A stretch of DNA of 51,893 nucleotides from Acetobacteraceae bacterium (GCA_023511555.1 JAIMBG010000002.1:1-51893); one strand, 5' to 3'. Shown: positions 7,855-40,088, counted from the first letter of the stretch. A program made the numbers and translations. Notes: generated from the letters alone by a model not told the origin.

Positions 7855-8739
7855 TTGGGGCTTTACCGCACCGAGGCCATCGTTCTCCGCGCCCAGCCCC
7901 TGGGCGAGGCCGACCGGCTGCTCACGCTGCTCAGCCGGGAGGGGGGTAAGGTGCGGGCCGTGGCCCGGGGTGCGCGCCGGGCCCGCAGTCGGCTGATGGC
8001 TGGCACCCAGCCTTTCACCCACGCCAGCCTCCTCCTGCTGAAGGGGCGGGAGCTGGATACCGTAAGCCAGTGCGAGATAAGGAACGCGTTCGGCGGCATA
8101 CAGGCGGACCTGGAGAGGACGGCGTGGGCGAGCTGCGCTGTGGAGCTGGTGGACGCGGCCCTGGAGGAGACCGGCGGGCAGGAGGCCGGGACCGGGCCCG
8201 GGGAGGTGTTCTCCCTCCTCCTTTCCGCCCTGGGACTGCTGTCCCGGGGCGAGGGCTCGGCGGACGCGGTGTGGCTGGCGTTCGCCCTGCGGCTGCTGTC
8301 GCTCCTGGGCTACCGGCCACGGCTGGAGGCGTGCGCGGCCTGCGAGCGGACCCCGGCGGGGGACGGCGAGGACTCCCTCTACTTCAGCCCGGCCCTGGGG
8401 GGCGTGCTCTGCGAGCGGTGCCGGGCCCAGGACCCGGCTGCCACCCGCCTCAGCCGGGGCGGGCTCATGGCGGCCCGCCAGCTCCTGGAGGGGGACATGG
8501 CCAGGTCGGGGCAGGTGCGGCTCGGCCCCGTTCTCCGGGGGGAGCTGGAGGCCCTCCTGGAGGGCCACCTGGCCCGCCACCTGGACCGGAGGCTGAGATC
8601 GCTCGAGTTTGTAAGAGCCATCCGGACCCAAAGCGGGGGCGATGGGGTTGGAGGAGCTGGAAAAGATCGACGCCGTGCGCAAGCGCGCGGGGGTGAGCTA
8701 CCGGGAGGCGAGGGAGGCCCTGGAACAGTCGGGCGGTGA
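7855..8739 (+). CDS. recO: DNA repair protein RecO
   Basis: [40 protein letters not shown] (OB fold) and the zinc motif CAACERTP...CERC. The ORF opens at 7774, but in-frame TTG 7855 follows GGGAGGG at good spacing. The 3' end overlaps the next ORF by 98 nt. Confidence 0.85.
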
Positions 8740-11700
8740 CGTGGTCGGCGCCCTCATCTACCTGGAGGAGAAGGGCAAGAGGTGGAAGGAGCGCATCCAG
8801 GTCAGGGGCGCCGAGGTGGTGGAGAAGGTGAAGGAGCTGATCCACCAGGGGAACGTCACCCGCATCCGGGTGAGGCAGGGCGACCGGGTCATCGTCGAGT
8901 TCCCGGTAACGGTGGGGGTGGTGGGGGCTCTGCTCCTGCCCGTCCTGGCCGCGCTGGGCGTTGTGGCGGCCATGGTCACCAACTGCACCATCGAGGTGGA
9001 GCGGGCCCCGGAGGGGGCGCCGCCGGCAGGGGAAGACGGCGGGGAGCCCGCCCCGGACAAGGGGCCCGGTGGCGAGGGGTGCCGGGCCGAAGGACCGGAC
9101 GGCGGGTGGCGGTCGGGCCACCTGGAGGAGACGTGCGGCCGCGCGGCCTGCCGAGGGGGGAGCCGGGAGCGGCCCTGCCGCCCCGCCGGCGCGGAGGGTC
9201 CGGTCCGGCGCGGGGGGCCGGCGGCCTTGCCGGGAGGAAGGGGGCGTGAGCCTTTGGGAAGGCGGCCTTCGGCCCCGGAGGGGAGGCCGGGGGATGAGCC
9301 CGTGGGCCTGCAGGGGATGATACGGCGCCTGGACAGGTTCTGGGAGGGCCGAGGTTGTGCCCTGCTCCTGCCTTACGACGTGGAGAAGGGCGCCGGGACG
9401 ATGAACCCGGCCACATTCTTCCGCGCGCTGGGGCCGGAGCCCTGGAGGGCTGCCTACGTCGAGCCCTCGCGCCGCCCCACCGACGGCCGCTACGGCGAGA
9501 ACCCCAACCGGGTGTTCCAGCACTTTCAGTACCAGGTGGTGCTGAAGCCCTCGCCCCCCGACGTCCAGCGGGCTTACCTCGACAGCCTGGAGGCCCTGGG
9601 CTTCAACCTTGCCGACCACGACCTGAGGTTCGTGGAGGACGACTGGGAGACGCCCTCGCTCAACGCCTGGGGGGTGGGCTGGGAGGTCTGGCTGGACGGG
9701 ATGGAGGTAACCCAGTTCACCTACTTCCAGCAGGTCGGAGGGTTCGAGGCCCGCCCCGTCACGGCGGAGATCACCTACGGCCTGGAGCGCCTTGCCATGC
9801 TGCTGCAGGACAGGGGCAGCTACTTCCAGGTGGCCTGGGGTCCGGGCTTGAGCTACGGCGAGCTGTGGCGCCAGAACGAGGCGGAGCAGTCCCGCTACTC
9901 TTTCGAGGTGGCCGACCCTGCCCGGCTGTTCCGCCTGTTTGAAGAGTATGAGGCCGAGGCGGCGCGGGCGCTGGACGCCGGCCTGGTGCTGCCGGCCTAC
10001 GACCAGGTGCTCAAGTGCTCCCACACCTTCAACCTGCTTGAGGCCCGGCGGGCGATAAGCCTGGCCCGGCGCACCGCGCTCCTGGGCCGGGTTAGGGCCC
10101 TGGCCCGGCGCTGCGCCGCGGCCTACCTGGAGCAGCGCGAGGCGGCGGGCTTCCCGCTCCTCAACTCCGGTGCCCGGGATGCGGCGGCCCCCGGCGCCGG
10201 AGACGCCGCCCCTGGAACCGGTGCAGCCGCTGCCGGGCCCGTCCCCCGCCGCGATGCGGCCGCTCCGGGTGCCGCTTTGGGGGCGGCGGCGTCCGCGCCC
10301 GGCGCCCGACCTGACCCTTCCCCCGACCATCCCCGCGACCTCCTCCTGGAGATAGGAACGGAGGAGCTTCCCGCCCGCTGGGTGCCGATGGCCCTGGACC
10401 AGCTCGCCCGCGAGGCGCAGGCGCTCTTTTCGCGGGAACTGCTGGAGCACGGGGAGGTGGCCTGCCTCGGCACCCCGCGCCGCCTGGCCCTGCTGGTCTC
10501 CGGCGTCGCCGGCCGCCAGCGGGACCGGGAGCTCAAGGTGAAGGGCCCCCCCGCCCGGGCGGCGTTCGGCGAGGACGGCCGGCCCACAGCAGCGGCTGAG
10601 GGGTTTGCCCGCAGCCAGGGTGTGGGCGTTGCCGACCTCACCGTGGAGGAGGTCTCGGAGCCGGGCAAGAGCGGCAGATACGTGTTCGCCCGACGGGTCG
10701 AGCCGGGGCGGCCCGCGCCCGAGGTGCTGGCCCGCGTCCTGCCGGAGCTCCTGGGCAGGCTGGAGTTTCCCCGCACCATGCGCTGGGGCGAGGGAGACTT
10801 CCCCTTCGCCCGCCCCGTGCGCTGGCTGGTGGCGCTCTGGGGCCAGGACGTGGTGCCGTTCGAGGCTGCCGGCTGCAGATCGGGCCGCACGACCCGCGGG
10901 CTGCGCTTCCCCGCCCCGCCTGCGGCCGGCCGGGACCGGGGGGCGGCCGCCGGGGATCGAGGTGCGGCCGGCTTCGAGGAGCTCATAGAGCTGGAGCACC
11001 CCGGGCAGTACCGGGAGCGCCTGGCCCGGGCCGGTGTAGTGGTGGACCCCCAGGAACGGCGGGCCCTGGTAGTGGAGGGGGTGACGGCGGCGGCGGCCCA
11101 GGTGGGCGGCCGGCCGCTGCTGCCGCCCGACCTGGTGGAGGAGGTCACCTTCCTGGTGGAGTGCCCCCGGGCGGTCCGCGGCAGCTTTGACCCGGCGTAC
11201 CTGGAGCTGCCGCCCGAGGTTCTGGTCACGGCCATGAGGTCCCACCAGCGCTACTTCCCCCTGGTGCGGCCGGGGCCGGGCCCCGAGGGATCCGGCGCCC
11301 CTTCGCCCCCGCCGGAGGCCGGGCCTGGCCCCCATTCCCTGGTGGCGGGCTTCTGCGCCGTGGCCAACGGCGGGCTGGATCCTGAGCTGGTCCGCTCCGG
11401 CCACGAGAAGGTGCTTCTGGCCCGGCTGGCCGACGCCCGGTTCTTCCTCGAGGAGGACCGCCGCCGCCCCCTGGAGGCGCGGGTGGAGGCTCTGAGGGGC
11501 GTGATGTTCCAGGAGGGGCTGGGGACGCTCTACGACCGGGCCCTGAGGCTGGAGGGCCTGGCCGGGCGGCTGGCCGGCTACCTTGACGGAGGCGAGGCCG
11601 TGGGCGGGGCCGCCCGACGGGCCGCCAGGCTGTGCAAGGCCGACCTCATCACCGCCATGGTGGGGGAGTTCCCCTCGCTTCAGGGGGTCATGGGCGGGAT

Positions 11701-12592
11701 CTACGCCCGGCTCGACGGGGAGGGGGAGGAGGTGGCCCGGGCCATTTACGAGCACTACCAGCCTCGCTTTGCGGGGGACGAGCCCCCCTCCACTGCGGCC
11801 GGGGCCCTGGTGGGGGCGGCCGACAGGCTGGACCTCCTGGCCGGATGCTTCATAGCCGGCATCCAGCCCACCGGTTCCGAGGACCCCTACGCCCTGAGGC
11901 GGCAGGGCTCGGGCCTGATCACGCTCCTACGCCGGCTCGACATGGAGGCGCCGCTCGGCAGGCTGGTGGCAGAGGCGCTCCAGGGATACGGACCGCTCCC
12001 CGGCGGCGGCCCTGCCGGGCAGGAGAAGGCGCTTCCGGCGCTGATGTCGTTTCTGGCCGACCGGATCCATACGCTCTTGGAGGAGGAGGGCTTCCGCTTC
12101 GACGTGATCCAGGCCGTGCTGGCCACTGGCAGCGACTCGGTGCCCCGCATCTGGGAAAGGGCCCGGGCCGTCTCCCGCCTGGTTGGCGAGCCCGAGGCCC
12201 TTGACGCCCTCGTCACCGTGTTCCGCCGCACGGCGCCGCTGTCCGGCGCCCGGGCCCAGGGGCTGGGGAAGACGCTGGAGCCGTACCTGGGGCCTGAGGC
12301 CGCCGCGCCGCCCGGAGTGGATGTGGGCCTCTTCCAGGACCCGGGCGAGGCCGAGCTTTACCGGGCGGCGCAAAGGGCCCGGGGGAAGGCGCTGCCGGCG
12401 ATCGCCGCCCGCGATTACGGGGCGGCGCTGGACGCCCTGGTGGAGATCCGGCCGGCCGTGGACCTGTTCCTGGACAAAGTGCTGGTCATGGCGGAGGACG
12501 CCCGAGTGCGTGCCAACCGCCTCAAGCTCTTGCACTCGATAGCCTGCCCCATCCTGGAGGTGGTGGACCCCGGCCGGCTGGTGGTGGCCTAG
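8642..12592 (+). CDS. glyQS: single ORF: DUF4342-like N-terminal module plus fused glycine--tRNA ligase alpha and beta subunits (GlyQS)
   Basis: Codons 1-125 ([37 protein letters not shown]...NCTIEVER) look like a UBA-like/DUF4342 protein. From about 9302, [17 protein letters not shown]...[19 protein letters not shown] is GlyQ. A Gly/Ala/Pro linker (about 10150-10330) leads into the GlyS N-terminus [14 protein letters not shown], which runs to the end. No stop occurs anywhere in frame. Possible internal starts are GTG 9302 and ATG 9317. Confidence 0.85.
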
Positions 12593-12612
12593 CCGGGACG
12601 GCACCGGGATGG

Positions 12613-15414
12613 GTGCGCAAGGGGGGCTGGGGGATGGAGGTCGGTGGAGGCTCCGGGCCTGGATGGGACAAGCTGCTCTATATGTTCGAGGAGGGCAACG
12701 CCCGCATGAGGCAGATTCTGGGCGGGAAAGGGGCCAACCTGGCCGAGATGACCCGCATCGGCCTGCCGGTGCCGCCGGGATTCACCATAACCGCCCAGGC
12801 CTGCGTCTATTACAGCGCCACGGGGTCGTTCCCGTCGGGCCTGGATGAGGCCCTGGACGACGGGATCAGGGCGCTGGAACGCCGCACGGGCAAGTCCTTC
12901 GGTGGCGAAGGTGAACCGCTCCTGCTCTCGGTGCGCTCGGGCGCGGCGGTCTCAATGCCTGGCATGATGGATACCATACTCAACCTGGGGCTTAACGACC
13001 GGACCGTCCGGGGGCTGGCCGGGGCCACCGGGGACCTGCGGTTTGCGCTGGACTGCTACCGGCGGTTCCTGACCATGTTCGGCAACGTGGTGCTCCGCAT
13101 CCCCCACGACCGCTTTGAAGACAGGCTCTCGGCGGAGAAGGCCCGCGTGAACGCCAGGTACGACGTGGACCTGGGGCCGGAGTCCCTGGAGAGGCTTTGT
13201 GGAGAGTACAAGCAGCTCATCAGGGCATCGAGCGGCTCGGACTTCCCCCAGGACCCGCGCCAGCAACTGGCCATGGCGGTGAGGGCGGTGTTCGAGTCCT
13301 GGAACAACCCCCGGGCCCGGGTCTACCGCCAGGTGAACCGCATCCCCGACGACCTGGGGACGGCGGTCAACGTGCAGTGCATGGTCTTCGGCAACACCGG
13401 GTCCGACTCCGGCACCGGCGTGGTCTTCACCCGCGACCCTGCCACCGGGGCCCGGGAGCTCTACGGGGAGTACCTCCCCAACGCCCAGGGCGAGGACGTG
13501 GTGGCAGGCATCCGAACGCCCCGGCCCATCTCTCAACTGGCCGGGGACATGCCCCAGGTGTACCAGGAGCTGGTGCGCCTCTGCGAGCTCCTGGAGCGCC
13601 ACTACGCCGACATCCAGGACATCGAGTTCACCGTGGAGCACGGCAGGCTCTACGTGCTCCAGACCCGCGCCGCCAAGCGCACCGCGGCGGCCGCGGTCAA
13701 GGCGGCCTGGGACATGGCCCAGGAGGGGCTGCTCAGCCGGGAGGAGGCGGTGCTGCGCGTCGATCCCGACCAGGTGGTGAAGCTGCTCCACCGCAACATC
13801 GACCCCCGGGCAAAGCTGGAGGTGCTCGCCACCGGCCTCCCCGCCTCGCCTGGCGCCGCCAGCGGCCGGGTGGTGCTGGACGCCGACCGGGCGGAGGAGC
13901 TGGGGCAGCAGGGCGAGCGGGTCATCCTGGTGCGGCCTGAGACCACCCCCGACGACATCCACGGCATCGTGGCCGCCCAGGGGGTGCTCACCAGCCGGGG
14001 CGGCATGACCTGCCACGCCGCCATCGTCGCCCGCCACATGGGCAAGCCCTGCGTGGTGGGCTGCGACGCCGTCAGGGTCGAGCCGGACTCGCGGGAGTTG
14101 CGCATAGGCGAACGACGCCTCCGGGAGGGCGACCTCATCTCCATCGACGGGGCCACGGGGCGAGTCATTCTAGGCGAGGTTCCCCTGGTGGAGCCCGAAC
14201 TCTCCCCCGAGTTCCAGGGCATCCTGGCCTGGGCCGACGAGTTCCGGCGGCTCAAGGTGCGGGCCAACGCCGACACCCCCCAGGACGCCCAGAAGGCCAG
14301 GTCGCTGGGGGCCCAGGGCATAGGGCTGTGCCGTACCGAGCACATGTTCATGGACGCCGGCAGGCTCCCCGTGATGCAGGAGATGATCATGGCCGAGACG
14401 GAGGAGGAGCGGAAGAGGGCCCTGGACAGGCTCCTTCCCATGCAGCAGAAGGACTTCGAGGGCATCCTCAAGGCCATGGAGGGCTACCCCGTGACCATCC
14501 GGCTCCTGGACCCCCCGCTCCACGAGTTCCTGCCCAACGTGGAGGAGCTGGCGGTGGAGGTGGCCAAGGGGCGCCTGCTCCTGGAACTGGAGGGCGGGGA
14601 CGCGGGTCCCAGCGGGGGGGCAGGTGCGGCCGGGGAGGGAGGGGCCCGGGTCGGGCGGAGCTCCCGGGCCATAAGCCCCGGCGACCTGGCCCGCAAGGAG
14701 GAGGTGCTGCGCAAGGCCAGGGCCCTTGCCGAGTTCAACCCCATGCTGGGGCTGAGGGGCTGCCGCCTGGGCATCGTCTACCCCGAGATCTACCACATGC
14801 AGGCCCGGGCCATATTCCTGGCCACCGCCGCGCTGCGCCGCGCCGGGATCGACGCCCGGCCGGAGATAATGATGCCGCTGGTGGGGCATCCCCGGGAGCT
14901 GGAGGTCACCCGGGCCCTGGTGCAGCAGGCCGCCGAGGAGGTGAGGCGGGAGACGGGGGTGGACGTGACCTGCCCCATCGGCACCATGATCGAGGTGCCG
15001 CGGGCCTGCGTCGCCGCCGACCGGGTGGCGGACCACGCCGACTTCTTCTCCTTCGGCACCAACGACCTCACCCAGACGACCTTCGGGTTCAGCCGCGACG
15101 ATGCCGAGGGCAAGTTCCTGCCCATCTACCTGGAGCAGGGGATACTGCGGGACAACCCCTTTGCCGTGCTGGACGGGGATGGGGTGGGCGTACTGGTGGA
15201 GATGGCCTGCCGCCTCGGCCGCAAGACGCGGCCGGACCTCAAGCTGGGCGTCTGCGGGGAGCACGGCGGGGAGCCACGCTCCATCGCCCTCTTCCACCGC
15301 TTCGGGCTGGACTACGTGAGCTGCTCTCCGTATCGCGTGCCCATCGCCCGCCTGGCAGCGGCCCAGGCGCAACTGCGGGAGACGGTGGGCGAGAGGGAGA
15401 AGGTGGGGGAGTAG
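12613..15414 (+). CDS. ppdK: pyruvate, phosphate dikinase
   Basis: GGKGANLAEM, catalytic His region GGMTCHAAIVAR, GLCRTEHMF and the C-terminal PEP-utilising TIM barrel (FFSFGTNDLTQ, CGEHGG). The start is either GTG 12613 or ATG 12634. Confidence 0.95.
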   Translation: MRKGGWGMEVGGGSGPGWDKLLYMFEEGNARMRQILGGKGANLAEMTRIGLPVPPGFTITAQACVYYSATGSFPSGLDEALDDGIRALERRTGKSFGGEGEPLLLSVRSGAAVSMPGMMDTILNLGLNDRTVRGLAGATGDLRFALDCYRRFLTMFGNVVLRIPHDRFEDRLSAEKARVNARYDVDLGPESLERLCGEYKQLIRASSGSDFPQDPRQQLAMAVRAVFESWNNPRARVYRQVNRIPDDLGTAVNVQCMVFGNTGSDSGTGVVFTRDPATGARELYGEYLPNAQGEDVVAGIRTPRPISQLAGDMPQVYQELVRLCELLERHYADIQDIEFTVEHGRLYVLQTRAAKRTAAAAVKAAWDMAQEGLLSREEAVLRVDPDQVVKLLHRNIDPRAKLEVLATGLPASPGAASGRVVLDADRAEELGQQGERVILVRPETTPDDIHGIVAAQGVLTSRGGMTCHAAIVARHMGKPCVVGCDAVRVEPDSRELRIGERRLREGDLISIDGATGRVILGEVPLVEPELSPEFQGILAWADEFRRLKVRANADTPQDAQKARSLGAQGIGLCRTEHMFMDAGRLPVMQEMIMAETEEERKRALDRLLPMQQKDFEGILKAMEGYPVTIRLLDPPLHEFLPNVEELAVEVAKGRLLLELEGGDAGPSGGAGAAGEGGARVGRSSRAISPGDLARKEEVLRKARALAEFNPMLGLRGCRLGIVYPEIYHMQARAIFLATAALRRAGIDARPEIMMPLVGHPRELEVTRALVQQAAEEVRRETGVDVTCPIGTMIEVPRACVAADRVADHADFFSFGTNDLTQTTFGFSRDDAEGKFLPIYLEQGILRDNPFAVLDGDGVGVLVEMACRLGRKTRPDLKLGVCGEHGGEPRSIALFHRFGLDYVSCSPYRVPIARLAAAQAQLRETVGEREKVGE

Positions 15415-15588: not shown

Positions 15589-18159
15589 CTACCGGGGCCC
15601 CCGCCGGGTCATGCCCAGGGCGTGGAGGTAAAGGTCCGGGACCCGGTAACGGGTGCCGGCTTCGGTGGTACCGTATTCAGCGATGAGTCCGACCTCCAGT
15701 CCGAGCTGGGTGAGGGGGTCGTCCTTTTTCAGCGCGCCGGGGTCGGTGTGTGACTGTTGCAGGGACTTGAGCCTGTCGGCCAGAGGCTCCAGTTGAGGAA
15801 ATTCCTCCCACAGAGCCTGGAGGGCCTTCTCCGACACCTCGCCGAGGGAGCTCTCCAGGGCGCGTGGCCGCAGGATGCTGCGGAGGTAGGGGGTTCCCTT
15901 CTGCTCCTTCATCTCCCACTGTGTTGCCGCCGAAAAGAGCTGAAACAGGGCTCGGGGGCTGTGGTCCCCGCTGCCGTCGGCCAGCCGGTTCCACACCCAG
16001 TTCAGCGTAAAGCCTGAATGCACTCCCTTCATCCTTTCCCCAACCAGGAGGTTCCACACCCCACGGACGAACTCTTCCGGGGCCCAGTCAAACTCCGGCG
16101 GAAAGTACCCGAGCCGCTTCTCGACCAGGTTCCTGAACCTATCGCTCCGAAGCGCCTGCTTGAGGACCGTTCGGGCGTAATCGATCTTGTCGTCGTGCCA
16201 CAACAGCGTTACGCTCTGAGCGTCCAGGTGGCTCTTGTTTTGAAACCGCAGCCTGCCCCAGATGTCCTTTCTGAGCAGGACCTTGAACTTCAGCCGCCGG
16301 AGCTCCGGCGACCTCTCCAGGATGAAGCCCATCAGCCCTTCCAGGGCGGCATTCCGCTCCTCGGCGGTGCCCCAGGCTGCGTCGAGGCCGTCAAACAGGA
16401 GAAAGACGTCCCGCTCGGCCGCCGAATCGAGGGAATGGAGCCACATCCAGCCTGAGAGGCCGGCGTCAGGCAGCCGAAGCGCCCGACGGAGCGCGTCGAG
16501 GTAGATCTCCTCGCTGTTCACCAACCCGGGGCTGGAGAGGAGCTCGTTGAGGGGCTGCGGCAGCCCCACCCGTGAGCATTCCGGGATGCCGGAGCGGGCG
16601 AGGGCCAGAGGGGTGTAAACCGTCCAAAAGTCGCGCCACCGGCATTCGCCGGCCGGCAGGCCCTCCGCCACCTTCGAGAACACGGTCCGGCTGGGAACCC
16701 AGCGATACTGTCCCCGGAGTTTCTCCGGGCACATAATGACCGCCGCCGGCTTCCTGGCCCCTTCTAGAATCCACCGGAACAGGGCGGTCTTGCCCGTGCC
16801 CTTGCGCCCCAACACCAACAGCTTATCGGGAGACATCGCCTGCTCAAACACGTACGTCTTGACGAAGGTCTCGCTAAAGTCTTGCTGCGTCTCGGCGATG
16901 CCGGGAGAAAACTTAAGCGACTCCAGTATGGTTACCTTGTCCCCTATCAATTCCCCCTTGGGCTCGGGCGGAAGGAGGCTTTCGAACCAGTCCGCTATAG
17001 GCTGAAAGAGGCTCAGGGTGTGCTCGTCGGAGGTAAGGATGGAGTCAGACGAAGCCAGGGCCTCCCGGTAGGGAATGAGATGAATGCTGTCCTCAAGGTT
17101 CCGCGTCAGCCGGGAGTCGGACAGCCACTCCCTGAGCCGGTCTTCCGCCTTCCGCCTGTACTCCTCCATGTATCGCTCCGGCACGGGTGAGACCACGAAT
17201 CGCGGCTCGGGGGCGAGCCGCCGGCCTTCGACCGTCCGGCGGGAACGGGCCCTGGTTATGGCGCGGACCAGAGCCGCCGTGCCGGTGTAGGCCTGGGGGT
17301 GGGGGAAGAAGACCACCACGGCGATGTCGGAGAGGTCGAACAGGAGGGGGGCGCTAAGCGGCGTCAGACCCGTGCGAGCGTCGATCAGGACCACGTCGGG
17401 CTTAAACGGCAGGCCCTTGAGCCCCTCCATCAGGCTCTGAAGCGGGTTCCCCTCCTCGCGGTACCAGGCCTCAGGATCGACGAGCCTGAGCCGGCGGGCG
17501 TAGTCGGCGTCGATCCTGCCTGCAGGCAGGCAATACAGTTCATAGGCGTCAGTGAGCCTTATCACGTGCTGGGCTATGTCCGGCGACTCCCCCTGGTCCA
17601 GGGCCAGGAGGACTGAGAGGAGGCCCTGGCCTGCCGGGATACCTTCCTCCTTCCCAAAAAAGGACGGGAGGCCGGGGGCCTCCAGGTCCATGTCCACGCA
17701 CAGGACGGAGCGGCGGGCCCTGCTCGCCAGGCATAAAGCCGTGTACGCCAGGGCCGTCGTCCTGCCAACGCCGCCCCGCACGGAATAGAAGGTCCCCACC
17801 AAAGGAGGGTCAAGATCCGCCTCTGTGTCTGACAGAAAAGTGGGTTCCTCGGGCCGGGGACCCCTGGCCAGGGCCTCCGCCCACAACGGGAGGTCCTCAA
17901 CCTCCAGCTCTATGGGCAGCTTGCCGGCACTCTTCTGCTCCTCGGGGGTGAGCAGGTCCAGCCACTGGATCGGCAGATCCTCCAGCCCCTTGAGCGCAAC
18001 TCTCCGCCTCTCCGCACGGTCCAGGCCGTTGAAGTCCCGCGAAACCACCGCTATCCGCCAGCCAAAGAACGGATCGGCTTGTACGCGGAGGTCATCGATA
18101 GTCTTATTGCCGGCACGCATGTTAGCTTCTATGGCCTTGCGGACGCCGTCCCGGTCCAC
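15589..18159 (-). CDS. multidomain NTPase: N-terminal small domain, ParA/MinD-like module with RGGVGRT variant Walker A, and a second canonical P-loop NTPase with a C-terminal helical region
   Basis: GTFYSVRGGVGRTTALAYTALCLA...LCVDMDLEAPGL...VVLIDARTGL matches the ParA/MinD deviant-Walker layout, with K replaced by R at both lysines (nt 17755-17778). The second module has LLVLGRKGTGKTALF (nt 16786-16809) and Walker-B-like VFLLFDGLD. An alternative start at ATG 18120 lies 1 nt after the HEPN stop. Confidence 0.7.
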   Translation of the reverse strand: MDRDGVRKAIEANMRAGNKTIDDLRVQADPFFGWRIAVVSRDFNGLDRAERRRVALKGLEDLPIQWLDLLTPEEQKSAGKLPIELEVEDLPLWAEALARGPRPEEPTFLSDTEADLDPPLVGTFYSVRGGVGRTTALAYTALCLASRARRSVLCVDMDLEAPGLPSFFGKEEGIPAGQGLLSVLLALDQGESPDIAQHVIRLTDAYELYCLPAGRIDADYARRLRLVDPEAWYREEGNPLQSLMEGLKGLPFKPDVVLIDARTGLTPLSAPLLFDLSDIAVVVFFPHPQAYTGTAALVRAITRARSRRTVEGRRLAPEPRFVVSPVPERYMEEYRRKAEDRLREWLSDSRLTRNLEDSIHLIPYREALASSDSILTSDEHTLSLFQPIADWFESLLPPEPKGELIGDKVTILESLKFSPGIAETQQDFSETFVKTYVFEQAMSPDKLLVLGRKGTGKTALFRWILEGARKPAAVIMCPEKLRGQYRWVPSRTVFSKVAEGLPAGECRWRDFWTVYTPLALARSGIPECSRVGLPQPLNELLSSPGLVNSEEIYLDALRRALRLPDAGLSGWMWLHSLDSAAERDVFLLFDGLDAAWGTAEERNAALEGLMGFILERSPELRRLKFKVLLRKDIWGRLRFQNKSHLDAQSVTLLWHDDKIDYARTVLKQALRSDRFRNLVEKRLGYFPPEFDWAPEEFVRGVWNLLVGERMKGVHSGFTLNWVWNRLADGSGDHSPRALFQLFSAATQWEMKEQKGTPYLRSILRPRALESSLGEVSEKALQALWEEFPQLEPLADRLKSLQQSHTDPGALKKDDPLTQLGLEVGLIAEYGTTEAGTRYRVPDLYLHALGMTRRGPR

Positions 18160-18550
18160 GCCCCCACCTCCTGCCCCGCCTTATCCGAGTGTATATGTAG
18201 CCCATTAGGCGAGTTGCTCCTTGGTAGAGAGCCTCCTCGTCCACGCCCGGGGGCAGGCTCTTCTCATACCTCAGGGCGGGTTCCCAAGCTTGGACGAACT
18301 GGCGGAGACGCCCATGCAGATCGGTTCGCTTGAACCTTGACAGTTCCCACAGGCCGTTGAGGTTGTGGCCTCCATGCCCGCTGGTCGGGACGTCTCGGCC
18401 CAGAAGGGTCAGGTACCCTTTGAGGCAGCACTCCACGGCGTACCCGATCATGTAGACGGCGGCCGGGCCGCGGCCGTTGCTCTTCAAAACCTTCGCGTCC
18501 CTGCCCCGTTCGTGGGCGACCTCCACCCACTCAGCGGCGTTCTGGGGCAT
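18122..18550 (-). CDS. HEPN-domain protein
   Basis: Helical HEPN pattern AAVYMIGYAVECCLKGYL, then GRDVPTSGHGGHNLNGLW (candidate R-x6-H), ALRYEK and a C-terminal helix. GGAGG lies 8 nt before the ATG. The gene is tightly coupled to the downstream NTPase gene. Confidence 0.75.
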   Translation of the reverse strand: MPQNAAEWVEVAHERGRDAKVLKSNGRGPAAVYMIGYAVECCLKGYLTLLGRDVPTSGHGGHNLNGLWELSRFKRTDLHGRLRQFVQAWEPALRYEKSLPPGVDEEALYQGATRLMGYIYTRIRRGRRWGRGPGRRPQGHRS

Positions 18551-27502: not shown

Positions 27503-27577
27503 GGGCCCGTAGCTCAGGGGCAGAGCAACCGACTCATAATCGGCAGGTCGCAGGTTCGAGCCCTGCCGGGCCCACCA
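27503..27577 (+). tRNA. tRNA with CAT anticodon (elongator Met or lysidine-modified Ile2; not initiator)
   Basis: Acceptor stem GGGCCCG/CGGGCCC, D-arm GCTCAGGGGCAGAGC, anticodon loop CTCATAA, T-arm GCAGGTTCGAGCCCTGC, and an encoded CCA. A G1-C72 pair and the lack of a 3xGC anticodon stem argue against the initiator. Confidence 0.9.
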
Positions 27578-27600
27578 CAGACTTGGGGGGCGGCCGCCGG

Positions 27601-27629
27601 TTGTCAGCGCGCGCGGGACGCGGTATAAT
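27601..27629 (+). promoter_or_regulatory. consensus-like sigma-A promoter upstream of tRNA-Glu/tRNA-Val
   Basis: TTGTCA (27601-27606), a 17-nt spacer, then TATAAT (27624-27629). Confidence 0.6.
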
Positions 27630-27663
27630 GGTGGCGCAGCGGTGGCGCGGGGCGCCACCCGGC

Positions 27664-27738
27664 GGCCCCATGGTCTAGAGGTCAGGACACCACTCTTTCA
27701 AGGTGGTAACGGGGGTTCGATTCCCCCTGGGGCCACCA
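27664..27738 (+). tRNA. tRNA-Glu (UUC)
   Basis: Acceptor stem GGCCCCA/TGGGGCC, D-arm GTCTAGAGGTCAGGAC, anticodon loop CTTTCAA, T-arm GGGGGTTCGATTCCCCC, and an encoded CCA. Confidence 0.92.
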
Positions 27739-27744
27739 GCACGT

Positions 27745-27819
27745 GGGCGGTTAGCTCAGGGGAAGAGCGCTTGACTCACATTCAAGAGGTCGGAGGTTCG
27801 AGCCCTCTACCGCCCACCA
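27745..27819 (+). tRNA. tRNA-Val (CAC)
   Basis: Acceptor stem GGGCGGT/ACCGCCC, D-arm GCTCAGGGGAAGAGC, anticodon stem-loop CTTGA-CTCACAT-TCAAG, T-arm GGAGGTTCGAGCCCTCT, and an encoded CCA. Confidence 0.92.
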
Positions 27820-27917: not shown

Positions 27918-28925
27918 TCAGGACAGCCGCATTATCTTGGTGAGAATACCGATGACCCGATAGACGGCTGCCAGGCTCACCACGACGAGGGCAACCCATG
28001 CTGCCACCACGCACCGGATCCAACAGCCGCCCCCTCCGGGATTGACTAGGAGGAGTAGCCCCGAGTATAGGGCGAGGAAGAAGGGAGCTCGGCTGCCGAA
28101 TGCAACGTACTCCACCAGCAGGTCGTAGTATGTGGAGGAGGCATTGACTTCGACACGCCTGACCTCACGAATGGTGTTCCTCATCTCCATCGAGACGAGG
28201 ACTGTTTGGGGGGTGGCCATAAAGCCGACTAGGATGGCGCTCACACTTATCGTGGGGTTCAGGAGCTTCTCGAGGATTCGCTGTTGCACGTGAAGGGGTA
28301 GCCAGCAGAGGCTGACGACGAACGCGCACCCATCGCCGTCCGTCCCCGGTAACCGTCTGCACGGTGACGGGCTGGTGCCACCACCCCGCCTCGGCCAGGA
28401 AGCTCCGGGCCGGCGCCACCGCGCCGCTCTCGTCGTGGCGCCACTCGCTCCACAGGGCCGAGGTGTGAGCACGGCCATCTCCCCCCGAGAGATGGCGCAT
28501 TGGGCCCACTCCTCGAGGGTGTCGGGCTCATCCACGTCGCCCACGCTGAGTGTGATCTCCGAGTCTTGCTTCTCGTCCACCACCTCGAAGGTCCACCCCA
28601 CGCCGGCATCCTCCCAGTTGGTCATAGCCCCGTCAAGCCACGACTTCCACTCCTCGGTTGCCCCGTCGCCGCAGAAGATCCTCAAGTGGCGCCGCGGCTC
28701 CCCCGTCCTGGCGTCCCTGGCCCACTCCCAGGACTCGTCCACGTGGGCCAGGACGATGATGGAGACCGGGAGCACCAGCATTGCAGCCACAAACGCTGCC
28801 CGGCACGCCTGGCGCCCGCGCCATGGACCACCAAAGCCACCTCCTGCAATTCTAGTGGGGTCATACGGCCGTTGTCCTCGGCTTATTGGCTCTTGCCCTG
28901 GGCCACGCTGCCTCTGTTCCATCAA
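27918..28925 (-). pseudogene. hypothetical membrane protein ORF with an apparent internal double frame switch (mosaic or degraded gene)
   Basis: The ORF is intact over 335 codons. Between about 28490 and 28340, third-position G/C is high in the alternative frame (GDGRAHTSALWSEWRHDESGAVAPARSFLAEAGWWHQPVTVQTVTGDG). The annotated frame there gives an R/P/G/S-rich, off-frame-like sequence. The C-terminal 120 codons encode hydrophobic helices. The region is visibly lower in GC. Confidence 0.4.
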
Positions 28926-29179
28926 GATTATCGCCCTACCCGCCGTGGTTTTCCCTGCCGGTCGTCGCGAGGCGACGAACAGCGGCCGGTCGCTCAGTCA
29001 GCTCCACCCAACGCGCGCCCCGCCCGTTACATAAAAGGGCCGGCCGGGGGAGACTTCTATACCTGGCGGCGGCCCTCCGCCTCCGCGGCCGCTGCGGGCA
29101 GCCTCCCAACAGGGCGTGTCCCGCCGGCCGCCCAAGCCTGCTCTCACGGAGGTGACCTTCGCTGAGCCGCGGGAGACTC

Positions 29180-30486: not shown

Positions 30487-32103
30487 TCACGGGGACTTCC
30501 GAGTCGGGTAAAGCACCAGCCACCCCCCCACCCACGCCATGTCGGGGCCTGCCAGCGGGTCTCCCGGCTCCAGCGGCCGCTTCAGCGCGAGATAGCCGGC
30601 GGGGGAGGGGCTCCAGTACGGGGCCGCCCAGGGGACGTCCCCGGCCCGTTCGCCGGTGGCCGCATCCACCAGCACGGGGCGGAGCAGGCCGCCTGAGGGG
30701 TCGGCGGCGCAGGCGCAGAGCTGGTCTTCGCCGATCCACTCCACGTAGTAAAGCCTCAGCCCCTGGGGCAGGGGCACCGCCTTCCCGGCCACGAAGTCCC
30801 ACAGGAGGCCCACCCCCGGCTGGCCGCCCTCGGCGGAGCTCTCCAGTGCCAGGTAGCGCCCCCCGGGGGAGAAGCAGAGCGGCAGACACACGGGGCCGGG
30901 GTCCAGGGGGAGGGCCTCGGTCTCAAAGCCTGGGGCGGAGGCCACGAGCACCCGGGACGGGCCGTCGTAGCTGACCCCGAACCCCGCCTCCCCCAGCGAC
31001 GCCCCGGCCACTGCGGCATAGGCCAGGCGGGAGCCGTCCTCCGACCAGGTCAGGCCCGCGGCCATCCCCCCGGCAAGGGCCAGGGCCGCGGTCGCGACCG
31101 GCTGAGGCGAGGCCAGGCTGCTGCGGGAGTATACGGTTATCGCCTGGCCGGCGCCGACGGGGTGCACGGCCTCCTCGGGGAACAGGGCCGTTTCGGCGTT
31201 GATGTGCAGCACCGCCAGCCACTCCGCGCCGGGCGCCGGGAGCGGGGCGAGGTACTGGCCCGGGACACTGAGCTCCCCCGCCACCGAGCCGTCGGGCAGC
31301 CGCACCAGCCTGAGCCCCCGGCCCTCCGTGGAGCCCGGCCCGTGGCGCACCGCCACCAGGGAGTCGTCGATCCAGGTCACATCCAGTCCCGCGTAGGGGA
31401 ATCCTCCCGGCGGGATGGCGGGGATCGGGGCCGCCCTCCAGCTCAGGGTGTCGTGGAGGAAGGTGCCTTGGGCGCAGAACCGAAGCAGCCATCTGCCTGA
31501 GGGAGAGAGCTGCAGGCCCTCGGCCGGGCCCAGGCACACCGGCTCCCCCTCCATAGGGACGTACCAGCCCGTCATTTCCTGAGGAGCCTCCCCGGCCTGG
31601 GGGTAGTGCAGGCTCACGAAGCCGGCCCCCTCCGGAAGGGGGTGCGGCCCGGCCGGCTCGCACTCCTGGGGGATGTCGCGGGCCCGGAACGCGCCGTCGG
31701 TGCCCAGGGTGAAGAACGCCTGAGAGGACCCGAGGTCTCCCCAACCCCAGGCCACCCCCGGGTTGACCCAGCCCACGGACCGGAGGTTGGCGAAGGGCCC
31801 CACCTGCCAGCGTCCCTCGACCAGCGCCGGGTGCAGTTCGGCGGCCGCCGCGGGGCCGGCCCAGCCCTTGTTCGGCGGGGCCGGGGCGCCCCCGTCCCCT
31901 GCAGGGGCCTCGCCTCCCGGAGCGCCCGCCCGGCCCTCCCCTGCCGGTGGGAGGGCCGGGCTCCCGCCGGCGGCGGGGGGCTTTTCCCCCGTCTTGTCCG
32001 CTGCGGGCGGGGCCGGGCGGCAGGAGGCAACAGCCACCAGCCCCAGGAGGAGCAGCGCCACCAGCACGGCGCCCCTTAGCCGCAGCCAGCCCTGTTTTGC
32101 CAT
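30487..32103 (-). CDS. lipoprotein with TolB-like/WD40-like beta-propeller repeats
   Basis: Signal peptide with lipobox (LVAVASC) and a Pro/Ala/Gly linker. Repeated SPSGRWLL, SEDGSRLAY and SPGGRYLAL motifs are characteristic of PD40/TolB-type blades. Confidence 0.6.
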   Translation of the reverse strand: MAKQGWLRLRGAVLVALLLLGLVAVASCRPAPPAADKTGEKPPAAGGSPALPPAGEGRAGAPGGEAPAGDGGAPAPPNKGWAGPAAAAELHPALVEGRWQVGPFANLRSVGWVNPGVAWGWGDLGSSQAFFTLGTDGAFRARDIPQECEPAGPHPLPEGAGFVSLHYPQAGEAPQEMTGWYVPMEGEPVCLGPAEGLQLSPSGRWLLRFCAQGTFLHDTLSWRAAPIPAIPPGGFPYAGLDVTWIDDSLVAVRHGPGSTEGRGLRLVRLPDGSVAGELSVPGQYLAPLPAPGAEWLAVLHINAETALFPEEAVHPVGAGQAITVYSRSSLASPQPVATAALALAGGMAAGLTWSEDGSRLAYAAVAGASLGEAGFGVSYDGPSRVLVASAPGFETEALPLDPGPVCLPLCFSPGGRYLALESSAEGGQPGVGLLWDFVAGKAVPLPQGLRLYYVEWIGEDQLCACAADPSGGLLRPVLVDAATGERAGDVPWAAPYWSPSPAGYLALKRPLEPGDPLAGPDMAWVGGWLVLYPTRKSP

Positions 32104-32145
32104 CTCAATCGCCTCCCCGGGCGTCCTCTGGACGAGGGTCGCCCC

Positions 32146-34500
32146 CTACCCCCCCTGCCCATCGGTGAACAGCATCGGCCCGATGGTGTAGGCTCGGATC
32201 CACTCCTGTTGGGGCGGGGCGGTGCCCGCCTTCAGCATCTTCCTCCAGGCCTCGTCCGTCAGGCGGTCGGTTATGGGGTGCTCGAACTCGTGGTAGGCGA
32301 ACATCGCCCCTCGGCCCAGGTAGAGCCGGCCCTCGAAGGGGAATATCACGTAGATGTGCTTGGCCGGGCCCACCCCCACCTCCAGGCAGCCGCCCCCGGA
32401 GGTGGCCACGTCGGCGATCACCGCCATGTGCCGGTCAGACTCTGAGATCAGGTTCCCCCAGTGGCCGTACGGCGAGACGGTGCGTACGGAGAGGCCCTCG
32501 ATCGTGCCGCCGAGGAGCATCAGGCGTTGCACCTCCTCCCGGCCGAGGGGGACCCCGGTGAGCTCCTTTACGGCCGCATCGCGGGCGAGCCCCAGCACCT
32601 CCCTGAACCCGGCCAGGACGGAGGCCATGTCCTCGCTCAAGAGCTTCCGTGAGGCCAGGCCGTAGCCCATCCGGTTCACCACCCAGTCGAGCCGCTGGTA
32701 GAACTCGGGCTCCGGCTCGACGTACTGGGGAACTATGTCCATGCCGTCTCCGCTCTCGGCGCCCACGCCTTTGCCGTAGAGTATGGTGGCGTGGCGGAGC
32801 TCGGACCAGCTTCCCAGGCAGGTCTCCAGGTCCTTGCTTGACCAGGCCTCTTTAAGCATGAAGGAGGGCATGCCCGCCGGCTTGGGCCCGATCAGGGGCT
32901 GGAGCGCCCACAGCCAGCCGTAGTACAGGTTCGACCGCCACGTGTCCTCCGGAAGGGTGGAAAACTGCGCCTTAAGCCGGGAGAACCTGGCCGCATAGTC
33001 GGGCCAGGCCTCGGCCTCGCGGTAGAGGTGGAACAGGAGGTGCTCGGCCCGGGCCGAGCCCAGTACCCCCAGCACGTCCAGGCCCCTGGGGAGGCGCCGG
33101 TGCGGCCAGGAGACAAGCTCCTGCATAATCTCGGAGTCGGGGATGTACCTCTGGCCCATGAACCTGAACTGCACCCCGGTGGGAATGCCAACGAGCACCT
33201 GCTTTATGCGCGGCTGGTTTTCGGGCTTGTCCATCTCGGCCACCAGCCGGTCGAGGCGGTCGCCGTCGGCCAGGGAGTCCGGCGGAGGCGACGGGCCCCA
33301 TATCGCCTCCATCATCCGCCGGGCATCGGCGACGCTGAGGTCGTCGGTCCGGCCCACGAAGAACACCGTGGGCTCGTAGATCTTGAGCCACAGGGCCTCG
33401 ATTTCGGGCCGTTCCAGGGCCCGGGCCATGAGCAGGGCCTGAATGAGCTGCTCGTCCGCCCTGGCGAGCGTGCCGCCGCGCAGGTACCGGGCGGGGAGCG
33501 GAGCCAGCCCGTACCACATCATGGCCCTGAAGTACCGCTCCAGCTCCGGCGAGCCGGCGTAGTGCCCGCGGGGGATGAACTGGGTGTAGTCCAGCTCGTA
33601 GGGGAACAGTGCCGAGGGGAGGCGACCTTCGTGGGCCCGGATGAGGGCGGCCTCGCTTTCCGCCAGGGCGCGGGCTTCCTCGGGGACGGCCGGGAGCGAG
33701 GCGTCGGGGAGCTCCAGAAGCTTCGAGGCCAGGGCGAAGTAGGCCACGTTCTTGAGCGCGGCCGACCTCACCGCCGGCGCCCTCGCCGCCTCCAGGTCGG
33801 CAAGACTCTGGGCAAGCATCTTCCGCGTGAGCTCCTCGAGGGATGGCGCGAGGAAGTAGCGCTCCGTGTCCCTTAGGGTGAAGTCGTAGATGAGGTAAAA
33901 GAGCTGAAGGAACACGTCGGCGGTGTAGAAGCTCGGGATTCCCCTGTAGGCGTTTCCCTCGTAGACGTAAAAGAGCTGCTCGTCCTCGCTCTGCGCCGCG
34001 AAGAACAGGTTCTCGGCCAGGAACGCGCGCTGCTCGGGGGAAAGCCCCCTGAACGCCGAGATGTTCTCCACGGTGGAGAGGTCCGCCGGGACGCTGTACG
34101 GCTTGACTTTGGGGGTGACCGCTACCGGGACGTAGCCCTGGGGACGCGTGAATCTAACCGTCCCCCCGTCCCGGGCCGAGACCTCCATCGCACCCTCTCT
34201 CTCCACCGCCGCGGCGGGGCGGGACCTCGCCTGCGCCCACTCGTCCTCCCAGGTGGATGGCCCGCCCGCCTCAGGCGGGGGTGCGCCCTCGCCCGGGGCG
34301 CCCCCGGGAGTCTCCGGCGGGCTCGCGGGCCCCGGGGCAGGCCGGCCTGGCGCGGACGGCCCGGCGGAGGGGCCGGCCCCCGGGGCGACCGGGCCAGCGG
34401 GGCGGGGCCTGCAGCCGAGCGGGCCGGCTGCCAGGACGGCGCAGAGGAGGACGGCCACTGCTGCCTGGAACCACGGCCTTACACTCGCGACGGATTTCAC
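32146..34500 (-). CDS. large secreted/lipoprotein, DUF3160-like
   Basis: N-terminal hydrophobic segment ending in LGC, then a Pro-rich linker and about 650 aa of globular sequence (FRGLSPEQRAFLAENLFFA, QLFYVYE). From memory this resembles DUF3160 proteins. GTG 34500 is better spaced from GGAGGTG than the ORF-track start at 34509. Confidence 0.5.
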   Translation of the reverse strand: MKSVASVRPWFQAAVAVLLCAVLAAGPLGCRPRPAGPVAPGAGPSAGPSAPGRPAPGPASPPETPGGAPGEGAPPPEAGGPSTWEDEWAQARSRPAAAVEREGAMEVSARDGGTVRFTRPQGYVPVAVTPKVKPYSVPADLSTVENISAFRGLSPEQRAFLAENLFFAAQSEDEQLFYVYEGNAYRGIPSFYTADVFLQLFYLIYDFTLRDTERYFLAPSLEELTRKMLAQSLADLEAARAPAVRSAALKNVAYFALASKLLELPDASLPAVPEEARALAESEAALIRAHEGRLPSALFPYELDYTQFIPRGHYAGSPELERYFRAMMWYGLAPLPARYLRGGTLARADEQLIQALLMARALERPEIEALWLKIYEPTVFFVGRTDDLSVADARRMMEAIWGPSPPPDSLADGDRLDRLVAEMDKPENQPRIKQVLVGIPTGVQFRFMGQRYIPDSEIMQELVSWPHRRLPRGLDVLGVLGSARAEHLLFHLYREAEAWPDYAARFSRLKAQFSTLPEDTWRSNLYYGWLWALQPLIGPKPAGMPSFMLKEAWSSKDLETCLGSWSELRHATILYGKGVGAESGDGMDIVPQYVEPEPEFYQRLDWVVNRMGYGLASRKLLSEDMASVLAGFREVLGLARDAAVKELTGVPLGREEVQRLMLLGGTIEGLSVRTVSPYGHWGNLISESDRHMAVIADVATSGGGCLEVGVGPAKHIYVIFPFEGRLYLGRGAMFAYHEFEHPITDRLTDEAWRKMLKAGTAPPQQEWIRAYTIGPMLFTDGQGG

Positions 34501-39715: not shown

Positions 39716-40088
39716 GACTGGCAACCAGGCCGGGCGGCCGCGGGCACAGGTGCCGCAAGGCCGTGTCCGAGGAAAGTCCGAGCTTCGCAGGGCAGGGCGC
39801 CGGGTAACGCCCGGTGGGGGCGACCCCAAGGAAAGTGCCACAGAAACACACCGCCGGCCTCGCGCCCCGGGCGCGGGGCGGGCAAGGGTGAAATGGTGCG
39901 GTAAGAGCGCACCAGCGGCCGGGTAACCGGCCGGCTGGGTAAACCCCGCCCGGAGCAAGGCCAAATAGGAGGGGGATGACGCGGCCCGCCGACCCCTCGG
40001 GTTCGGCCGCTGGAGGGGCCGGGCGACCGGTCTCCTAGATTGATGGCCGCCCCAGACAGAACTCGGCTTACAGGCCTGGTTGCTGAAG
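39716..40088 (+). ncRNA. rnpB: RNase P RNA, bacterial type A
   Basis: Universal blocks are present: GAGGAAAGTCCGAGC (P4 5' strand), CACAGAAACA, GGGTGAAATGGTGCGGTAAGAGCGCACC, GGGTAAACCCCGCCCGGAGCAAGGCCAAATAGG and ACAGAACTCGGCTTA (P4 3' strand). P1 pairs GCAACCAGGCC (39721-39731) with GGCCTGGTTGC (40073-40083). The ends are approximate. Confidence 0.92.

Follow-up and report, generated by a model that had tools for sequence, protein, structure and literature searches.

An overlapping HEPN and fused ParA-like/P-loop NTPase gene pair in an Acetobacteraceae bacterium: a candidate two-gene conflict module related to PDC-M28

This work concerns two overlapping genes of an Acetobacteraceae bacterium (GCA_023511555.1), carried on the minus strand of the 51,893-nucleotide (nt) stretch JAIMBG010000002.1:1-51893, which is called the window below and is meant at its whole length. 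The pair occupies positions 15589-18550. Its upstream gene (18122..18550) encodes a 142-amino-acid (aa) HEPN-domain protein of the classical PF05168 or 'HEPN-T' type, and its downstream gene (15589..18159) an 856-aa polypeptide, referred to here as the NTPase, in which a BolA-like domain, a KGGVGR-type ParA/MinD-fold module (module 1) and an Sll1717-family P-loop NTPase (module 2) are fused. A preliminary description of this DNA had reported both open reading frames (ORFs), which we recover with the same ends on the minus strand, and had offered two starts for the larger one, i.e., a GTG at 18159-18157, which puts the start 38 nt inside the HEPN ORF, and an ATG at 18120-18118, 1 nt past the HEPN stop codon (TAA, 18124-18122). 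Both codons are present. In a 24-sequence alignment, however, all 23 aligned homologues open with M-x-x-x-[ED]-[IL]-[KR], in register with the window's MDRDGVRKAIEAN, and direct reading of the sequence reveals a Shine-Dalgarno AGGAGG on the same strand within the HEPN coding tail (18167..18172), spaced 7 nt from GTG 18159. For both reasons the NTPase starts at GTG 18159 and the ATG at 18120 is ruled out as its start, so that the two genes overlap by 38 nt (18122..18159, minus strand). This arrangement suggests translational coupling, and the tight two-gene operon that had been proposed stands.

The pair is compositionally atypical for its surroundings along its entire length (15589..18550). 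Its GC content is 0.64-0.65 against a window mean of 0.72, and GC at third codon positions (GC3) falls to 0.82 in the NTPase gene and 0.76 in the HEPN gene, against 0.88-0.93 in each flanking gene. One flank holds glyQS and ppdK, and the other a gene for a Cu-amine-oxidase-N wall protein, an HD dGTPase-like gene and dnaG. No att-like repeat, tRNA, integrase or Rfam element was found at the borders of this two-gene insert, nor was a sigma-70-like/consensus promoter or a convincing terminator found at the pair.

The four-helix HEPN fold of the smaller protein is secure, since the Pfam score, family-wide matches, and the structural model with its Foldseek matches all agree. The Pfam HEPN model PF05168 scores 28.4 bits against a gathering score of 22, aligning residues 6-66 only. 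The same model is matched by 32 of 40 family members (best E = 2.3e-9), no other HEPN family is consistently matched by the 40 members tested, and the family profile weakly recovers the classical HEPN structures 1WOL and 1UFB; a single-sequence search was too weak for this purpose (word-indexed database, 2 matches) and a profile was needed. The AlphaFold2 (AF2) model of the protein has a predicted local distance difference test (pLDDT) score of 82, and its top six Foldseek matches in the Protein Data Bank (PDB) are all classical HEPN structures (1WOL, 4NQF in two chains, 2HSB, 1UFB and 1O3U; probability 1.0, template-modelling (TM) score 0.57-0.68). The HEPN assignment made earlier has thus come through profile and fold searches intact.

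Five polar residues are invariant over the 40 HEPN partners, some of which are just 15-20% identical: E40 (18431-18433), K44 (18419-18421), H62 (18365-18367) and the R94-Y95 pair (18266-18271), all on the minus strand. Their retention across clades so far apart in sequence is a sign of a functional site. R15 is nearly invariant as well, and members of the main clade carry a strongly basic, Arg-rich C-terminal tail. The R..H motif assumed in the preliminary description has not fared as well, as the window's R52-x6-H59, considered as the catalytic motif, proved idiosyncratic and is not kept in the family. An Arg stands 4-5 residues ahead of the invariant H62 in 13 of the 40 members, and a conserved His at +4 to +8 past the invariant R94 is found in none of them. 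The aligned segment of TT1696 reads R-Y-P-D-A-H (i.e., Rx4H), whereas in the present family no conserved His comes after R94-Y95.

The full-length AF2 model of the NTPase has a mean pLDDT of 84, and the ATPase motifs quoted earlier are all found in it: SVRGGVGRTT (residues 126-135), DMDLEAPGL (156-164), VVLIDARTGL (256-265), GRKGTGKTA (451-459) and VFLLFDGLD (585-593). An N-terminal domain of about 105 aa had also been recognised; it is indeed present, and is now seen by topology and profile as BolA-like. It consists of a BolA-like domain proper (residues ~1-80) and an acidic linker to residue ~100 (17860..18159, minus strand), the linker ending in a conserved LPLWPEALAR. In the AF2 model its topology is alpha-beta-beta-alpha-beta-alpha. 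A family profile of this domain, used in place of a single-sequence PDB search that was too weak, matches 11 BolA structures (best 1V9J, E = 3.8e-4), the Pfam BolA model is matched below its gathering score by 6 of 17 members (best E = 0.0022), and the Joint Genome Institute (JGI) product names among homologues include 'BolA-like / stress-induced morphogen'. When the family consensus is aligned to 2KZ0, Arg and Gln take the places of the two BolA His residues. An Fe-S role, brought to mind by BolA and by Pfam matches of the Mrp/NUBPL type, was considered and rejected, there being no CxxC among the conserved residues and no BolA His. Sister families of fused ParA-like and P-loop NTPases (P0346-P0403) match the family profile only from position ~115 on, and no Pfam domain could be recognised in their differing N-terminal regions of 50-135 aa. 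Because these regions differ and alignment begins only there, the N-terminal domain appears exchangeable among sister families.

Module 1 (residues ~118-400; 16960..17808, minus strand) has a ParA/MinD/BcsQ fold. It matches the NCBIfam model NF047398, 'KGGVGR-motif variant AAA ATPase', over residues 121-301 at 148.8 bits against a cut-off of 90, and Foldseek aligns it with BcsQ, MinD, FleN, Soj and ParA (target TM 0.64-0.75), with the MinD, ParA and BcsQ equivalog models all scoring the NTPase far under their cut-offs. The deviant Walker A KGGxxGK[ST], with both of its lysines, does not occur here; the motif is RGGVGR[ST], with RGGVGR at residues 128-133 (17761-17778, minus strand). The Walker-A Lys is replaced by Arg (xGGVGR) in all 72 scorable loci (RGGVGR in 47, KGGVGR in 25), and D156-x-D158-LEAP, which is switch-I-like, and D260-x-RTG are invariant in the alignment. 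Because the substitution is universal and the remaining pocket residues do not vary, the pocket of module 1 is altered yet under strong selection, and its invariant remainder argues for retained ligand binding and not for a dead domain. The 'twin P-loop NTPase' of the preliminary description is therefore canonical in its second half, not in its first, which is of the type termed predicted-inactive by Kaur et al. (2020; PMC7159879). A KGGVGR-type ParA-like module was also encountered in a 734-aa 'TIR domain-containing protein' on the Sinorhizobium chiapasense plasmid pSchITTGS70c (L082, 4989-7193), whose gene forms a cluster with a UvrD-like helicase and two or more further TIR-domain genes.

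Module 2 (residues ~405-856; 15592..16947, minus strand) matches NCBIfam NF047389 at 115.3 bits against a cut-off of 75, the best stretch, residues 581-799, corresponding to positions 183-374 of the 454 in the model. The KGGVGR and Sll1717 families named in the preliminary description are thus the correct ones. The Walker A (GRKGTGKT, residues 451-458; 16786-16809, minus strand) is of the canonical GxxGxGK[ST] type in 71 of 71 loci, and the Walker B (LLFDGLD, residues 587-593; 16381-16401, minus strand) takes the form hhhhDGLD across the alignment, with invariant FK-x-LLR-x-DIW, NKSH and GERM-x-G downstream of it. To judge by these sequences, hhhhDGLD and LLR-x-D bear a resemblance to the Walker B and sensor 1 of NACHT proteins. 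In the AF2 model the module ends in helical domains followed by a winged-helix-like C-terminal helix and beta-hairpin (815-839). No sequence relative of module 2 was found in the PDB. Its Pfam matches are sub-threshold and confined to the P-loop (AAA_16 in 9 of 9 members, ORC-CDC6-like in 8 of 9, NACHT in 5 of 9, and nSTAND3/5). A standalone 494-aa Sll1717-type ATPase without the ParA-like module was seen on the MOBP-mobilisable plasmid p001 of Aeromicrobium yanjiei (L081, 4962-8363), where it is flanked by a gene with an AbiEi domain and a hypothetical gene of 623 aa.

The fused NTPase belongs to a large and scattered family. More than 590 full-length fused homologues were found at 45-52% identity; at E <= 1e-30 the family amounts to 293 representative clusters (50% identity), and at least 419 relatives were confirmed among genomes of 185,579 species. 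They are patchily spread over at least 10 phyla, with hosts that include Cyanobacteriota, Actinomycetota (Streptomyces, Frankia, Kitasatospora, Micromonospora), Myxococcota (Sorangium), deltaproteobacterial lineages (Desulfobacteraceae, Desulfobulbus), Chloroflexota, Dormibacterota, Planctomycetota, purple sulfur Gammaproteobacteria, Magnetococcales, a Paenibacillus and one metagenome-assembled genome labelled archaeal. Filamentous cyanobacteria, mycelial actinomycetes and myxobacteria account for many of the hosts. Modules 1 and 2 are fused in one ORF throughout the family; two apparent split close relatives were set aside, one being a gene cut by the contig start (P0300) and the other a truncated gene with no module 2 counterpart downstream (P0288).

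Neighbourhoods were compared in 77 loci from different species, 72 of which have upstream DNA. A single-sequence search finds a HEPN homologue on the same strand directly upstream in 50 loci, a profile finds one in 69 of the 72 (the exceptions being L013, L022 and L046), and the pairing holds even in a cyanobacterial clade in which the NTPase is just 27-30% identical. The junction elsewhere is typically a 4-nt overlap of the ATGA type or a gap of less than 20 nt. Identity between any two HEPN proteins closely tracks that between their NTPases (r = 0.91, Mantel p about 0.001; main clade r = 0.85), with HEPN diverging faster (mean identity 35% vs 45% for the NTPase), so the gene-neighbourhood check called for in the preliminary description finds the two genes co-conserved. 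The pair is also autonomous, because no third gene is conserved with it in the 77 loci, the largest flank cluster reaching 6 of 77. Its horizontal mobility follows from the patchy spread over phyla, the low GC3 in the window and the insertion among glyQS, ppdK and dnaG. What is inherited here is, in short, an autonomous, co-inherited and horizontally mobile two-gene unit.

Some individual loci deserve mention. In two metagenomic copies (L084, 2668-4439; L085, 169-1940) an intact HEPN gene is followed by an NTPase truncated just before the second P-loop and ending in ...FVETVVPGF*, with no coding sequence past it, and the L084 copy adjoins a FitA/PIN toxin-antitoxin (TA) pair. If these truncations are real, HEPN is tolerated without module 2. 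In Gloeothece verrucosa (L078) the gene upstream of the NTPase is just 55 aa long, possibly a decayed HEPN, and a Prok-JAB deubiquitinase-like gene comes after the NTPase (9818-12616 and 12637-13086), with groES-groEL just downstream of the locus (13338-15412). In five other cyanobacterial loci (L066, L067, L069, L072 and L077) groEL/groES lie 0.7-4 kb upstream of the pair. This adjacency, seen in both the main and the divergent clades, could reflect shared synteny or a recurrent insertion site.

The closest catalogued system is PDC-M28, a three-gene PADLOC candidate of the order A>>B>>C, identified by 'guilt by embedding' with 121 RefSeq instances; like all 145 PDCs it was released as an untested candidate (Payne et al. 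2024). Four of eight other PDC/HEC candidates protected against phage when assayed, in a set that did not include PDC-M28 (PMC12881386). The A, B and C models match the window's HEPN, module 1 and module 2 respectively, at 24.9 (E = 5e-6), 84.5 and 63.9 bits with partial coverage, whereas true PDC-M28 loci in IMG/VR proviruses (L087, L088, L092 and L096) consist of three overlapping genes scoring 76-88, 322-332 and 447-456 bits over their full length and adjoin a phage integrase or a Rha regulator. Homologous modules occur in the same order in both, a HEPN-like A, a KGGVGR ParA-like B and an Sll1717-type P-loop C, with overlapping gene junctions and with common residues R/ExxxK/GH/RY in A, KGGVGR and D-x-D-LEAP (DLDLEAP) in B, and GxRGxGK[ST] in C. 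On the other hand, B and C are separate genes there and one 856-aa polypeptide here; the LLFDGLD Walker B of the window had no match in PDC-M28C in a pattern search; the first lysine of the KGGVGR motif is also Arg in the window (RGGVGR); and the PDC-M28 members found sit in proviruses by integrases, whereas the fused family is mostly chromosomal among housekeeping genes. Because its scores are partial and far below the full-length scores of genuine members, the window pair is, by sequence comparison, a fused distant relative of PDC-M28 and not a member of it. Judged by eye, the first ~120 residues of a genuine PDC-M28B (L096, 1448-1840; …AILRDAEGSLTLILRKDI…GTPEELFDES) recall the BolA-like pattern of the fused family (…DLRVQ…WRIAVVS…LTPEEQ), and the two may be divergent homologues.

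A second precedent is the dyad of a HEPN protein of the MAE_18760 family and a ParA/Soj-like ATPase that was predicted in 2013 to be a TA system (Anantharaman, Makarova, Burroughs, Koonin and Aravind; PMC3710099). Both are computational predictions, and in both a small HEPN gene stands beside a gene for a SIMIBI/ParA-fold ATPase in a two-gene unit. The MAE_18760 HEPN, however, is tabulated in that paper as keeping Rx4-6H, with several N-terminal fusions, whereas the window HEPN is of the PF05168 type without a conserved Rx4-6H (a comparison made by the published description of MAE_18760), and the paper's account of the dyad mentions neither a second P-loop NTPase nor a BolA-like domain. The pair is thus real and has precedents: it is a fused version of a candidate already catalogued and may be one of the 2013 dyad as well, so that the pairing itself is on record. 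The preliminary description had known of no functional study of it, which does stand for the literature searched: searches for PDC-M28, KGGVGR and Sll1717 returned nothing relevant, and a 2026 STAND survey does not cover the fused family. New are the BolA-like domain, the non-canonical HEPN site and the universal Lys-to-Arg change in a ParA-like pocket that shares its chain with a canonical P-loop.

Likenesses to other systems are looser. Predicted-inactive MinD/ParA-like domains, found also with STAND ATPases, recur in the NTP-dependent conflict systems of multicellular bacteria, according to Kaur, Burroughs, Iyer and Aravind (2020), who class these domains among cell-division-related effector domains (PMC7159879). 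Those systems and NF047398 recall the window pair in their ParA/MinD fold with an altered P-loop, in the association with a STAND-type ATPase (putative here) and an effector domain (a candidate here) and in their preponderance in multicellular bacteria. They are, however, vWA-MoxR/VMAP ternary or peptide-processing systems none of whose other components is present here, and in module 1 the remaining nucleotide pocket is invariant. With the MNT-HEPN pairs (type VII, HepT/MntA-like) the window pair would share a HEPN regulated by an adjacent nucleotide-using protein; the nucleotidyltransferase and HepT's Rx4HxY motif are absent. With the Avs/STAND anti-phage NTPases it would have in common a P-loop switch followed by helical domains towards the C-terminus; none of the Pfam models for Avs or STAND proteins reaches its threshold, and the candidate effector is a separate gene and not an N-terminal fusion.

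Taken together, these results lead us to favour, with a probability of roughly 0.55, the interpretation that the two genes by themselves make up a conflict module, of the abortive-infection or toxin-antitoxin type, that spreads horizontally and in which the NTPase would be an ATP-dependent switch and HEPN its partner and output. Obligate pairing, co-divergence, autonomy and mobility all argue for this interpretation, and so do the defence-type relatives, i.e., the PDC-M28 matches, the integrase/Rha context of the provirus copies and the signature residues common to both families. Further reasons are the precedents of inactive MinD/ParA-like domains, of a KGGVGR-TIR fusion and of the 2013 prediction of a HEPN and ParA/Soj dyad, as well as the invariant polar residues of HEPN and the prior set by the success of half of the PDC/HEC candidates assayed. 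From the domain anatomy, conserved residues, pairing, co-divergence, mobility and homology to the provirus-borne PDC-M28 we infer how such a module, with an anti-phage role, might work. Module 2 would bind and hydrolyse ATP and thereby undergo a conformational or oligomeric change, while module 1 would bind nucleotide with little or no turnover, serving as a dimerising scaffold and not as a motor. The trigger would be received by the BolA-like domain or by the C-terminal helical/winged-helix region. A HEPN dimer would be held or regulated by the NTPase and, once triggered, would bind or cleave RNA via a non-canonical site (H62, R94, Y95, E40 and K44), which would bring about growth arrest.

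Several points weigh against a conflict module. Most of the genes nearest the pair are housekeeping genes with no relation to it, and TA- or defence-like ones number about 5-8 of 120; those TA- or defence-like or mobile comprise four PIN genes, three AAA_15/21 ABC-ATPases, one PglZ and two integrases. None of 50,697 phage records contains the fused form, and of 72,556 plasmids just one, from Nostoc, carries it at full length. No positionally conserved R-x(4-6)-H could be found across the 40 HEPN members and, because this canonical motif is not conserved, RNase activity is uncertain. AbiV, which might have served as precedent for an RNase with an 'alternative histidine', had to be discarded, as the AbiV paper shows a functional Rx5H. 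The NTPase is unusually well conserved from end to end (mean column identity 63% in the homologue alignment), which is not typical of sensors caught in an arms race and would be equally compatible with a conserved role in the cell. Module 2 belongs, as far as its sequence tells, at the AAA_16/STAND level, its STAND placement resting on sub-threshold matches at the level of the P-loop. Finally, the literature searched holds no experimental datum for either the fused family or PDC-M28. As a whole, the interpretation of the preliminary description is partly supported: its conflict or defence candidate does have relatives in phage or defence contexts, but its immediate neighbours are mostly housekeeping genes and not defence islands.

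A classical addiction pair is an alternative that we consider unlikely, without dismissing it. HEPN would then be a constitutively toxic RNase or RNA binder and the ATPase its antitoxin, acting by nucleotide-dependent conformational change or phosphorylation, and the pair would stabilise itself or mobile DNA with no dedicated phage sensing. The tight overlap and co-inheritance of the two genes suit such a role, as do their scattered single copies among housekeeping genes and by PIN, PhdYeFM/YoeB and FitA TA genes. Yet an 'antitoxin' of 856 aa whose three domains include a second, canonical NTPase, and which has a putative sensor region besides, goes far beyond what neutralisation needs, and the split relatives at integrase-proximal sites of proviruses are placed in a way typical of defence cargo. 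MNT-HEPN pairs are usually antitoxin-first, and the HEPN-first order here is the opposite. The 2013 prediction speaks for an addiction pair in general terms, and the same source puts forward the hypothesis that HEPN proteins without the motif can still be toxic (PMC3710099); against this, the HEPN in hand belongs to PF05168 and not to MAE_18760, and lacks the Rx4-6H listed for the latter.

Quite unlikely, in our judgement, is a cellular regulator with no part in conflicts, in which an inert HEPN would be the RNA-binding subunit of a BolA-like/ParA-like/NTPase scaffold that serves stress response, RNA metabolism or the control of cell shape or positioning, mainly in bacteria with complex lifestyles. 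Such a regulator would agree with the high conservation of the NTPase over its whole length, with the absence of Rx4-6H from HEPN, and with hosts many of which are filamentous cyanobacteria, mycelial actinomycetes and myxobacteria; BolA and MinD/ParA folds are, moreover, best known from morphogenesis and positioning. This said, the BolA-like domain here lacks both BolA His and the P-loop lysine of the ParA-like module is replaced. Housekeeping neighbourhoods, including the repeated groES-groEL adjacency in cyanobacteria, also seem to favour it, but the neighbourhoods are not conserved, the pair is compositionally foreign in the window, its relatives are rare and patchy for the number of species covered, and homologous split systems lie on proviruses beside integrases.

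Reversed roles, in which the NTPase would be the effector (disturbing, for example, the nucleoid, membrane or division machinery via its ParA/MinD-like module, as Kaur et al. suggest for such domains) and HEPN the sensor or RNA-binding regulator, are improbable, since, for all that MinD/ParA-like domains are classed as cell-division-related effectors by Kaur et al. (PMC7159879) and that a HEPN without catalytic motif but with a conserved pocket and basic tail is suited to RNA binding, the hallmarks of module 2 are those of a switch and not of a toxin, and HEPN is overwhelmingly the effector in known conflict systems as summarised in the 2013 account (PMC3710099).

Returning to the conflict module, a more ambitious form of it is tentative and, to us, rather doubtful: the pair would be the prototype of a widespread module for immunity or programmed growth arrest that is concentrated among bacteria of multicellular lifestyle and in which a canonical switch, in cis with a non-hydrolysing, Arg-substituted ParA-like dimeriser and a BolA-like adaptor, controls HEPN via the non-canonical site made of H62, R94, Y95, E40 and K44. 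If true, both this way of regulating a HEPN effector and this use of the ParA fold would be new. Prokaryotic immunity relies centrally on HEPN effectors and P-loop switches, and a role of the pair in defence against phages or plasmids would validate PDC-M28 along with its much commoner fused relatives, which rules written for three separate genes may miss. It would also show the role of 'inactive' ParA-like domains in conflict systems and add a system typical of cyanobacteria, actinomycetes and myxobacteria. Should the pair turn out to be a cellular regulator instead, it would be a caution against reading immunity by default into every pairing of HEPN with an NTPase.

Other features of the window are of separate interest. 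An uninterrupted 1316-aa frame on the plus strand (8642-12592) combines DUF4342 (aa 46-121) with the alpha (223-500) and beta (567-1161) subunits of GlyRS. Either glyQS is fused here and the gene upstream of it happens to share its frame, or all three parts form a true fusion. GC content dips also at 28001-29000 (0.65), just downstream of a tRNA-Met/Glu/Val cluster at 27503-27819, and at 32001-34000 (0.68), against about 0.72-0.75, and these dips may mark further acquired segments. A class A bacterial RNase P RNA lies at 39722-40086 on the plus strand (274 bits).

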